A DNA stretch of 18,636 nucleotides, from IMG/VR virus record IMGVR_UViG_2547132278_000016, one strand, 5' to 3'. Shown in pieces: positions 11,141 through 13,685 of this stretch. The position numbers and the translations under genes are program-made. The notes beneath the pieces are model-generated. The model ran no database searches and had not been told where the DNA came from. It saw nothing but the letters and a program-made list of their open reading frames with translations. Position 1 is the stretch's first letter, and every line of letters starts with the position of its first letter. The DNA is from a virus. Lineage: Duplodnaviria; Heunggongvirae; Uroviricota; Caudoviricetes.

Positions 11141-11838
11141 AAAACATCGCCGCACAGATGGTTAACTTTGACCGTGAGCAGATGCGTCGGATCGCCAACA
11201 ACATGCCGGAACAGTACGACGAAAAGCCACAGGTACAGCAGGTAGCGCAGATCATCAACGGTGTGTTCAGCCAGTTACTGGCAACTTTCCCGGCGAGTCT
11301 GGCTAACCGTGACCAGAACGAACTGAACGAAATCCGCCGCCAGTGGGTTCTGGCTTTCCGGGAAAACGGGATCACCACAATGGAACAGGTTAACGCAGGA
11401 ATGCGCGTAGCCCGTCGGCAGAACCGACCATTCCTGCCATCACCCGGGCAGTTTGTTGCATGGTGCCGGGAAGAAGCATCCGTTATCGCCGGACTGCCAA
11501 ACGTCAGCGAGCTGGTTGATATGGTTTACGAGTATTGCCGGAAGCGAGGCCTGTATCCGGATGCGGAGTCTTATCCGTGGAAATCAAACGCGCACTACTG
11601 GCTGGTTACCAACCTGTATCAGAACATGCGGGCCAATGCGCTTACTGATGCGGAATTACGCCGTAAGGCCGCAGATGAGCTTGTCCATATGACTGCGAGA
11701 ATTAACCGTGGTGAGGCGATCCCTGAACCAGTAAAACAACTTCCTGTCATGGGCGGTAGACCTCTAAATCGTGCACAGGCTCTGGCGAAGATCGCAGAAA
11801 TTAAAGCTAAGTTCGGACTGAAAGGAGCAAGTGTATGA
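11137..11838 (+). CDS. P: Replication protein P (DnaB helicase loader)
   Basis: 233-aa translation MKNIAAQMVNFDREQMRRIANNMPEQYDEKPQVQQVAQIINGVF… matches lambda P; ATGA overlap with the O stop. Confidence 0.95.
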   Translation: MKNIAAQMVNFDREQMRRIANNMPEQYDEKPQVQQVAQIINGVFSQLLATFPASLANRDQNELNEIRRQWVLAFRENGITTMEQVNAGMRVARRQNRPFLPSPGQFVAWCREEASVIAGLPNVSELVDMVYEYCRKRGLYPDAESYPWKSNAHYWLVTNLYQNMRANALTDAELRRKAADELVHMTARINRGEAIPEPVKQLPVMGGRPLNRAQALAKIAEIKAKFGLKGASV

Positions 11839-12008
11839 TGGGCAAAGAGGCAATTATTCATTACCTGGGGACGCACAAGAGCTTCTGTGCGCCGGACGTT
11901 GCTGCGACAACAGGTGTGACATTAACCAGCATAAATCAGGCTGCGGCAAAAATGGCGCGGGCAGGAATCCTGGTCATTGATGGTAAGGTCTGGCGAACGT
12001 TTGTTTAA
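11835..12008 (+). CDS. ren: Ren-like protein, C-terminally truncated (57 aa)
   Basis: Hand translation MMGKEAIIHYLGTHKSFCAPDVAATTGVTLTSINQAAAKMARAGILVIDGKVWRTFV* resembles the N-terminal half of lambda Ren (~96 aa); similarity ends near 12000. Confidence 0.6.
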   Translation: MMGKEAIIHYLGTHKSFCAPDVAATTGVTLTSINQAAAKMARAGILVIDGKVWRTFV

Positions 12009-12154
12009 CGGTTAGCTACTCAGGATGATAGGGCGGGGCAAGTGAGTATGAAGCGGATTTTCAGGAATGCCATCAGAGTTTGGAAATAAAGTGGGTTTTC
12101 TAGTGGCAAGAGACTTGATAATATTTAGTTCTTTGAATCCAAGGAGATAGGGTT

Positions 12155-12650
12155 ATGAGAAAATTTATTTTAGCCTTTGTTATAAGTGCCTCGTTTACAG
12201 CAAATGCTGGTGTAGAGAAGTTAGGGCCGTGGATAACAAAGTCTGAGATAAATAAAATGACTGACCAGACTGACTTTGTGGCCCTTAATTTATCACCAGA
12301 TTCATATAACAAAGCAGGTACTGATCGTGCAACTTCACTGGTGTTGCGTTGTAGTGATAACAAAACAGATGCCTATTTATCATTCAATGATTATATGGGT
12401 TCGGACAACCCAAGAATTACAGTGCGGTTAGATGGGCGGAAAGCCGGTCAAGAGTGTTTGGGGAGGTGGGGAAGGCGGTGATTCTGCATTTGCTCCACAA
12501 CCAATACAATTTATAAAGACCTTGGCTAAGCATAAAAAAGCTATTTTTGGGTTTGAACCTTATGGATCAACTATGCAAGTAGTTGAGTTTGACTTGTCTG
12601 AGATTGATAAGGTTGTGGAAAAAATTTCACAGTCTTGCAATTGGAAATGA
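12155..12650 (+). pseudogene. Secreted/periplasmic hypothetical protein gene split by an apparent frameshift (ORFs 12155-12481 and 12432-12650)
   Basis: AAGGAGA RBS then ATG 12155; signal peptide MRKFILAFVISASFTANA; reading frame ends in a G-rich stretch (GGGGAGGTGGGGAAGGCGG) while an overlapping frame continues to 12650. Confidence 0.5.
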
Positions 12651-12667
12651 CAAAAAAATTTCATATG

Positions 12668-12695
12668 AACCCAGTTTGCGCTGGGTTTTTTATTT
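12668..12695 (+). terminator. Intrinsic terminator
   Basis: Stem AACCCAG/CTGGGTT (loop TTTGCG) followed by TTTTTTATTT, about 20 bp after the stop at 12650. Confidence 0.6.
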
Positions 12696-13279
12696 CAGTA
12701 GCCAATAATGCATTCAAAATCTCTTACTTGAGAAACGGCCTATTTGAGATTTCAGTCGTGGCAGGATGATCAGTTGATTCGAGTATTGACGCATTTGCGT
12801 TCGGAGCGATTACAGTAGATTGTAAATAATAATGAGAAACACATAGCCACCCCGTGGTATTGAAACCATATAATGTTGGATTTGAAAACAGATCTTTTCC
12901 CATGTATTAATAACTACATCCCCGCGAGTGATTCAAAAAGGAGGGCCCAATTTTGTCCGAGTTTTTGTATTCCCCCGCATGCCGCTGCGGAGCACTACAT
13001 CTGAGTGTCTGACTAGGGGATAAAATTAGACTGGATAGTGAGAAGAAAGTGGCGCGCTAGGCTGTGCCGAGTGCTACCAGTACACCTTGGGGGTGTGCAG
13101 CTTTCGCCGAGACTGTAGTGGGTATCGGTTAATGCACGAAAAACCGAGAGGTCAGACAACCAATTTGCCGTAGGATTGTTTCCGGTGCGATACCGGTCTA
13201 CTAACTGAAAGCAATGCGAAAAAGCATAAACTCGGTCCTTCAGTCGCCCTACACACTATTTACTAAGAAGGGCTGAAGC

Positions 13280-13479
13280 ATGGATACAATTATTACATGG
13301 ATGGGAGATCGTCTGTTGGGGGGACACAAAAATCCGATCTGCGGCAGATGGCGATCACTGGATTAACTTCCGCGATTTGTTCAACAATTTTGTACACTGA
13401 AAAATTAAAACATGGTGAGCCTATTAACCCAAACGAAGAAGAAAAACTTTATAGGCTTTGGTATGAAGGAAACGCTTGA
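13280..13479 (+). CDS. Small hypothetical ORF with a G6 tract separating the RBS-linked start frame from the long frame (possible pseudogene or frameshift-prone gene)
   Basis: AGAAGGG then ATG at 13280 (MDTIITWMGDRLLGG…, stops after 28 codons); track ORF 13297-13479 is in another frame; the two frames meet at GGGGGG 13318-13323. Confidence 0.3.
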
Positions 13480-13685
13480 AAGAATAAAGCACAATTAAAA
13501 CCTTTGATTTGCGATAATCAACTTGCCATAATTAAGTAATCGGAGTCTGAACAACTCCGGTGACTTCTGCGCTAAACGGGGACGTTTATGCGCACATACA
13601 ATCCAAACTATCTTCTCCTTTCACAGATGCAGAAATGCACCTGCAATTCTTTGCATCTAGCGTTTGACCTCTGCGGAGGTGAAGC

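Follow-up and report, generated by a model that had tools for sequence, protein, structure and literature searches.

Organization of the locus

The window (the whole 18,636-nt stretch of viral DNA analysed) holds a lambdoid prophage integrated beside ybhC. Genes were assigned also with the help of the annotation of near-identical RefSeq prophages. The left part carries a lambda-type integrase gene, exo, bet, gam and the cIII thermoregulator (Rfam RF01804), followed by an N-like gene, a cI-like repressor gene, cro, cII, O, P and a remnant of ren. A TagO/VasI-like gene, the locus of a 66-codon ORF, and the genes ylcH, ybcN, ninE, ybcO and rusA come next; the Q antiterminator gene, an nmpC-like porin gene and the lysis genes occupy the right end. 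Features between ren and ylcH are listed in Table 1.

Table 1. Features of the window between the ren remnant and ylcH.
Feature	Position	Strand	Remarks
ren remnant	11835-12103	+	in nearly every relative examined, PGAP labels the equivalent 269 nt 'protein ren; frameshifted; internal stop'
TagO/VasI-like gene, frameshifted	12155-12650	+	extra G at 12432-12434, GGG versus GG elsewhere
Intrinsic terminator of the TagO/VasI-like gene	12667-12696
Recombination junction	12730-12818	+	homology to phage Turner starts at 12730
8-nt unit CACATAGC	about 12831-12839		once in the window, 2-3 tandem copies in close relatives
Promoter-like site	12882-12911	+	TTGAAA, 17 nt, TATTAA(T), preceded by TG; read by eye
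Candidate structured RNA	12918-13250	+	~330 nt; ends about 30 nt 5' of ATG 13280
Shine-Dalgarno-like AGAAGGG	13266-13272	+	7 nt 5' of ATG 13280; identical in G7 relatives
Probable frameshifted pseudogene	13280-13479	+	G6 allele of the 66-codon ORF (phrog_8527), itself truncated from a 118-aa gene (phrog_12412)
Frame opened by the Shine-Dalgarno-linked ATG	13280-13366	+	28 codons, MDTIITWMGDRLLGGHKNPICGRWRSLD; the last 13 are out-of-frame read-through
60-codon frame	13297-13479	+	rest of the ancestral coding sequence; own ATG without Shine-Dalgarno
G6 homopolymer	13318-13323	+	site of the -1 frameshift
Deletion junction	13458-13468	+	last copy of the 11-bp direct repeat TTGGTATGAAG; from a three-way alignment with Turner
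Stranded 3' end of the 118-aa gene	13460-13498	+	GMKETLERIKHN*; frame differs from that of the 66-codon ORF
Sigma-70-like site	13504-13532	+	TTGATT-17-CATAAT with TG extension; upstream of ylcH and ybcN

Several of these features are themselves marked by lesions or junctions. Since ren is called a pseudogene by PGAP in almost all relatives, its inactivation is common to this prophage group. The intact TagO/VasI-like gene encodes 164 aa and matches the Pfam VasI family (E 5e-6); in the window one extra G splits it into two frames of 108 and 72 codons. The extra residue is absent from all the complete genomes spanning the locus (0/56) and thus private to the window; it stems from a fresh mutation or else from an error of assembly. 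Between this gene and the RNA element sits a gene fragment starting at the 12730 junction, which falls within the 3' end of an ORF of 107 aa in Turner (residues 80-107, 64% identity). At the other side of the locus, the stretch of phage 82 (X92588) homologous to the sigma-70-like site is annotated as containing -35 and -10 signals and a 'possible regulator-binding site'.

The arrangement P, ren, TagO-like gene, RNA, 66-aa ORF, ybcN is shared by a 43,337-bp circular 'plasmid' of E. coli SZQ1 (locus L024, NZ_CP174001.1), a complete replicon. Probably this replicon is the same lambdoid phage in excised or episomal form, assembled as a plasmid, which suggests that prophages of this type are still active.

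Two reading frames meeting at the G6 tract

The ATG at 13280, its Shine-Dalgarno-like motif, the stop after 28 codons, the 60-codon frame and the coordinates of the G6 tract, all taken from an earlier sequence-only reading of the window, were confirmed on reading the sequence. In relatives with seven G residues (G7) PGAP starts the ORF at the ATG equivalent to 13280. The ATG at 13297 is not preceded by any Shine-Dalgarno-like motif in the 17 nt at its 5' side. The frame downstream of the G6 tract is -1 relative to the upstream frame, and adding one G fuses the two, as had been proposed; G7 relatives do encode the fused ORF. The fused product is 66 aa long (MDTIITWMGDRLLGGTQKSDL...) rather than ~67, one surplus Gly having been included in the sequence spelled out before.

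The G6 tract is the only run of at least six G or C residues in the window, where 3.6 +/- 1.8 are expected under a first-order Markov model, and by itself is unremarkable with respect to chance. The tract is meaningful because relatives carry an in-frame G7 run, annotated as a 66-aa CDS.

The 118-aa gene and the 134-bp deletion

Once repaired by the addition of one G, the ORF matches phrog_8527 from end to end (E 2e-49), and positions 1-65 of the 118-position profile of phrog_12412 (E 6e-26). Relatives of 85-118 aa were found by protein searches, and identity to the 118-aa members is 82-85% across the shared part. The 118-aa sequence reconstructed from relatives is found at 100% identity in the phages Turner (PP925837) and IdasGreatGrand (PP925829), in which the DNA around the intact gene is 95% identical to the window.

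In the intact gene two TTGGTATGAAG copies flank the 134-bp segment that is missing here. Since 134 is not a multiple of 3, the frame shifts past the junction, and the short ORF ends ...WYEGNA*; the stranded end listed in Table 1 is to be compared with GMKATLEGIKHN, the C-terminus of the 118-aa family. At the site corresponding to the tract, intact 118-aa genes have GGGGTGGATA, with no homopolymer, where the short form has GGGGGGG. As Turner carries GGGGTGGATA, the homopolymer arose after truncation.

Full-length homologues are exactly 118 aa long in ten cases out of ten, down to 51% identity, in E. coli, Enterobacter and Obesumbacterium. Residues invariant among the ten are densest at positions 64-118, the segment lost here. 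This conserved C-terminal half (LAKRCLxKSEYWL ... ELNISL) is absent from the window copy, having been removed by the 134-bp deletion. Full-length genes are under purifying selection, with dN/dS values of 0.21-0.32 for the N-terminal segment and at most 0.16 for the C-terminal one. The value for the short form versus Turner is about 0.4 (about 6 synonymous and 8-9 non-synonymous changes), which does not prove neutrality. The alignments show phrog_8527 to be nothing but a deletion-truncated form of phrog_12412, and the window copy is a remnant of the latter family, rather than an intact member of it.

Tract alleles in related prophages

Of 5426 complete E. coli genomes, about 150 match a 551-bp query around the locus over its full length. 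Five of these matching genomes were read, and G6, G7 and G8 tracts were seen in otherwise near-identical DNA. Alleles were then counted by short tract-centred queries in the 58 complete E. coli genomes carrying this form of the gene. The frame is intact in genomes with G7 (18/58), which encode the 66-aa hypothetical protein, and in those with one substitution in the 64-nt query (16/58; GAGGGGG, coding for Leu-Leu-Arg-Gly, in every copy read). It is shifted in genomes with G6 (18/58, hence 18 of the 5426 complete genomes) and G8 (5/58). In the last genome (1/58) GAGGGGG is directly followed by an inserted IS3-family element, ISEc52, and the gene is disrupted. Overall the 66-codon frame is open in 34 of 57 copies, and out of frame in 23 of the 41 uninterrupted tracts. 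Among IMG/VR contigs, 11 have G7 and 6 have G6 (6/17).

Annotation follows the frame. The 201-nt CDS (66 aa; WP_000379697.1, WP_000379696.1) is annotated by PGAP in the in-frame genomes only, and nothing is annotated by PGAP at the locus in G6 or G8 genomes, not even a pseudogene. Further lesions occur in other family members, namely a frameshift from A5 to A4, the in-frame loss of 11 codons and altered C-termini. Every substitution seen within the 66 codons is non-synonymous (G to R, R to Q, L to F, I to T, P to T).

Inheritance of the G6 allele

The sequence-only reading had suggested comparing tract length in related prophages; once this is done, length is seen to track the phylogeny of the flanks. 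Between the window and ETEC strain 120899 one base differs in about 3.55 kb, outside the tract. Fifteen complete genomes are identical to the window over 1.5 kb, save for the private extra G in the TagO-like gene, and all fifteen have G6; their hosts are human, dog and swan, and they were sequenced in separate projects. None of the complete RefSeq E. coli genomes matches 12100-13600 of the window without a difference. The window's haplotype, in about 19 copies, is G6 throughout, and no genome of this haplotype has G7.

A tree was made from ~2.3 kb of flanks at 21 loci, after removal of the tract. Six of the seven G6 loci fall into one clade, the sister group of which is made of the G8 locus and a G7 locus. 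Pairs of loci with 0-2 flank differences always have tracts of equal length, and the nearest pairs with unequal tracts are at least 9 differences apart in about 2.3 kb. G6 goes together with flanking SNPs, such as T at +223 in the main haplotype. Members of the G6 clade diverge from each other by up to about 0.5%, so the allele is not fresh. Two G6 loci are outliers: L017 sits next to a G7 locus in the tree, and L013 has a clearly different right flank. Because of them, either the tract changed more than once, or it was moved by recombination; two to four changes, or transfer by recombination, probably account for the data.

G6 is a real, stably inherited frameshift allele. The sequence-only reading listed a fresh frameshift mutation among the possible origins of the split frame. 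It was right as to the kind of event, and wrong as to its age, given the 18 genomes sharing the allele and the diverged clade with two outliers. The pattern of tract lengths argues against rapid switching and fits a mutational hot spot: the rate of indels in E. coli rises exponentially with homopolymer length (PMC8510543).

Probable decay of the gene, and alternatives to it

The locus is best described, with good though not full confidence, as a dispensable accessory gene that a lambdoid prophage is losing stepwise, at a site prone to slippage. The ancestor would be a 118-aa gene of the phrog_12412 type, the length of which has been kept in prophages of E. coli, Enterobacter and Obesumbacterium. 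The first step was the deletion of 134 bp between the TTGGTATGAAG copies, visible in the aligned sequences, which took away the most conserved, C-terminal half of the protein and left the 66-codon ORF. In the truncated lineage GGGGTGGATA then turned into GGGGGGG, a run of 7 G at codons 13-15; this change, too, can be read by comparing the two gene forms. The run next lost one G, an event marked by the G6 allele itself, and presumably caused by replication slippage. As a result the frame from ATG 13280 stops after 28 codons, with the remaining 52 ancestral sense codons lying in the -1 frame. Parallel lesions are the gain of one G in a sister lineage (G8), the IS3-family insertion in another copy and the further lesions found elsewhere. 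From then on the G6 allele has been passed on stably with the prophage. An intact and constrained homologue exists, and the window copy carries both a deletion and a -1 frameshift, as pseudogenes do. The window gene is most likely non-functional, its expected product being a peptide of 28 aa. Two observations can be set against decay: the 34 open frames out of 57 could reflect residual function, not youth, and the repeated change of the tract (L013, L017) is formally compatible with slow switching. What probability decay leaves over falls to slow phase variation, to translation of the 60-codon frame on its own, to recoding and to an assembly error.

Slipped-strand phase variation, also put forward by the sequence-only reading, would make the tract a contingency switch, on at G7 and off at G6 or G8, flipping at high frequency. 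Three tract lengths are indeed found in close relatives, more than half of the uninterrupted tracts break the frame, the tract sits near the start of the ORF and G6 occurs on more than one flank background. Moreover, the promoter-like site of the upstream RNA may also drive transcription of the ORF, which could then be expressed in lysogens. The lengths, however, differ between lineages, but closely related copies always agree: all pairs of loci with unequal tracts are at least 9 differences apart in 2.3 kb, and the copies of the window's haplotype, about 19, are uniformly G6. The tract is also short (6-8 nt). Mismatch repair is intact in E. coli, and few switches based on homopolymers are known in this species. 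In Neisseria, variability at the level of reads is found mainly in tracts of at least 8 nt, and seldom in shorter ones (PMC5084427). The protein made in the 'on' state would be a truncated remnant of the 118-aa gene, devoid of the conserved half of the family. Intact genes have no homopolymer, and the tract is interrupted in 16 genomes (GAGGGGG where read); a slippery tract is therefore not maintained by selection. Phase variation thus finds no support, and is improbable as the origin of the split frame. The last origin named in the sequence-only reading, an error of sequencing or assembly hiding a true G7, may be dismissed with near certainty. Homopolymers are classic sites of indel errors in long-read, 454 and Ion data, and the private 1-nt insertion in the TagO-like gene, absent from 56 complete genomes at that locus, tells that the window may not be free of them. 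Yet G6 recurs in 18 complete genomes, produced by many laboratories, and in 6 IMG/VR contigs, no genome of the window's haplotype has G7, and random errors would not track phylogeny, while G6 is tied to flanking SNPs and to a clade. Many independent assemblies and this linkage together refute the error.

The two other alternatives accept the G6 allele and ask whether most of the protein may still be made from it. A 66-aa protein could arise by -1 ribosomal frameshifting or transcriptional slippage. UUG GGG GGA is formally a heptamer of the X XXY YYZ type (G GGG GGA at 13318-13324), and a -1 slip on it gives exactly the G7 product. No downstream stimulatory structure is found, though, since the 13325-13400 segment folds at -11.7 kcal/mol, against a mean of -12.3 for shuffled sequences (z = +0.23), and the split frame is not conserved, a single frame being present in 34 of 57 copies and in all 118-aa homologues. 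The split arrangement is a minority, derived state, and the intact family lacks the tract. Six G residues are few for slippage of RNA polymerase, and all-G heptamers are not known as efficient shift sites in E. coli. Recoding is accordingly very unlikely. Independent translation of the 60-codon frame from ATG 13297, by which most of the truncated protein would still be made, is a poor candidate as well. The ATG is present, its product would retain 52 residues out of 66, all but one ancestral, and some gene callers predict the frame in G6 genomes (P0010) or in the GAGGGGG/A4 variant (P0008). On the other side, the start lacks a Shine-Dalgarno motif in the 17 nt upstream and lies inside the translated 28-codon ORF, in a different frame; all G6 and G8 genomes are left unannotated in the region by PGAP, and the product would still miss the conserved C-terminal half. 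The sequence-only reading would have taken it as a sign against joined frames if homologues shared the G6 tract and conserved a separate start for the downstream frame. Homologues with G6 exist, but are near-identical copies of one allele, and give no evidence of an independent start.

Comparison with known systems

The decayed gene resembles other pseudogenes of lambdoid prophages, such as ren in the same prophage. In both, an intact homologue is found in free phages, and the inactive allele is passed on along with the prophage; a deletion between short direct repeats and a single-base frameshift are lesions of the same sort, and independent lesions occur in other lineages. The locus differs from them as its last lesion hit a homopolymer formed after truncation, and did so at least twice (G6, G8), and as it carries no pseudogene call by PGAP.

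Poly-G and poly-C contingency loci of Neisseria, Campylobacter, Haemophilus and Bordetella also have a G tract near the 5' end which sets the frame, and is polymorphic in length between strains. In contrast to them, the tract measures here 6-8 nt, varies in length according to phylogeny and is often interrupted; it is absent from the intact family, and the in-frame product is truncated. Nor is E. coli known for such homopolymer switches. Programmed -1 sites, such as A AAA AAG in dnaX or G GGA AAG in lambda G/GT, have in common with the locus an X XXY YYZ heptamer placed where two frames in -1 register overlap. Unlike them, the locus has no stimulatory structure, its two frames are not conserved, and the in-frame allele is the ancestral one.

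The biological weight of the G6 allele is low, as it adds another homopolymer frameshift in a dispensable prophage gene. Its use is mostly practical: phrog_8527 is recognised as a truncated phrog_12412; PGAP is seen to omit the locus silently in G6 and G8 genomes, with no pseudogene call; and the case offers a worked example of how a phylogeny of the flanks tells inheritance of an allele apart from phase variation and from errors of sequencing.

The 118-aa family

Both phrog_8527 (66 aa) and phrog_12412 (118 aa) are labelled 'unknown function' in PHROG, and neither form has a match in Pfam, NCBIfam or PADLOC. The AlphaFold model of the 118-aa protein is a four-helix bundle (pLDDT 80, pTM 0.70). 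Foldseek searches against PDB returned generic helical bundles with E >0.4, including HEPN toxins at low probability, and were rejected as uninformative. A profile search retrieved 348 cluster representatives, mostly of 100-140 aa, which make a large uncharacterised family. None of the 20 representatives scanned has an informative Pfam domain over the matched region. One distant member (P0073, 309 aa) features a TIR domain after the matched region (TIR_2, E 4e-18). The fusion is a weak hint that the 118-aa family may act in defence or signalling modules.

A candidate structured RNA upstream of the ORF

No terminator-like T run separates the conserved ~330-nt region upstream of the ORF from ATG 13280. 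The region is 75-79% identical in Klebsiella phages and in Enterobacter-type prophages, in the form of long invariant blocks with variable stretches in between, and its homologues have no ORF in common. RNAalifold predicts from 22 distinct copies a structure of 82 pairs in 17 helices; 13 pairs show compensatory changes, concentrated in three helices, at alignment columns 130-135/185-190, 140-147/151-158 and 191-199/206-214. With the structure derived from the same alignment, and the sequences falling into about six related groups, paired cells amount to 98.4% versus 94.2% in shuffled alignments, double-change cells to 65 versus 21, and the covariation score to 0.190 versus 0.114 (none of 500 shuffles reaches any of these values; slid controls score 0.04-0.06). 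Support for a structured RNA is good but not conclusive. Many conserved G-U pairs point to an RNA transcribed from the + strand. Single-sequence folding of the region is not distinctive on either strand (z about -0.5), and only comparative analysis gave a signal.

The promoter-like site upstream is left unflagged by a stricter consensus scan. It ends about 7 nt before ATCCCC, the conserved start of the RNA, and its layout is retained in diverged variants (TTGAAT-17-TTTAAT, TTGTAT-17-TTAAAT). The RNA finds no match in Rfam, even at E up to 10; ARAGORN detects neither tRNA nor tmRNA, and there are no tandem repeats like those of type III antitoxin RNAs. A literature search with the sequence blocks of the RNA found no mention of them. 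Searching species-representative genomes for the invariant 18-mer of the RNA gave 10 matches in unrelated phyla, where ~17 are expected by chance (596 Gb, both strands), and these were discarded. A second, degenerate pattern retrieved from IMG/VR only loci already found with the 18-mer, and no further diversity of the RNA. Based on the comparative data, the 12918-13250 region is a credible candidate for a new structured RNA, or a long leader.

The element is found in 158 of the 5426 complete E. coli genomes (about 3%), and is never annotated. The 118-aa gene, or a remnant of it, follows the RNA with no T run in between at 67 of 77 classifiable loci, a set biased toward that gene. At other loci the RNA is followed, after a terminator-like T run, by unrelated genes (183 aa, 178-191 aa, about 200 aa); a 93-aa gene sits behind the RNA with no T run. 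The 178-aa and 183-aa genes were considered as remote homologues of the 118-aa gene, and rejected (hhalign probability <1%); they have no reliable match in Pfam, and none in PADLOC.

The RNA and the 118-aa protein may tentatively be seen as a two-part accessory module, in which the RNA would be the part under selection. The idea, doubtful as it is, comes from the apparent co-transcription of RNA and ORF, with no T run between them, whereas the RNA is followed by a T run at most loci with an unrelated gene downstream. Moreover, the protein partner was lost repeatedly, by truncation, G6 or G8 tracts and IS insertion, and the RNA is almost invariant, which suggests selection on the RNA. A true phase switch made by a G tract in E. 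coli is much less likely than such an RNA-protein module. An RNA with a variable gene slot downstream is probably the finding of lasting value at the locus, and more interesting than the G6 tract. The 8-nt unit CACATAGC varies in copy number ~45 nt 5' of the promoter-like site, with insertions of 8 and 16 nt at three related loci (L003, L005, L002).
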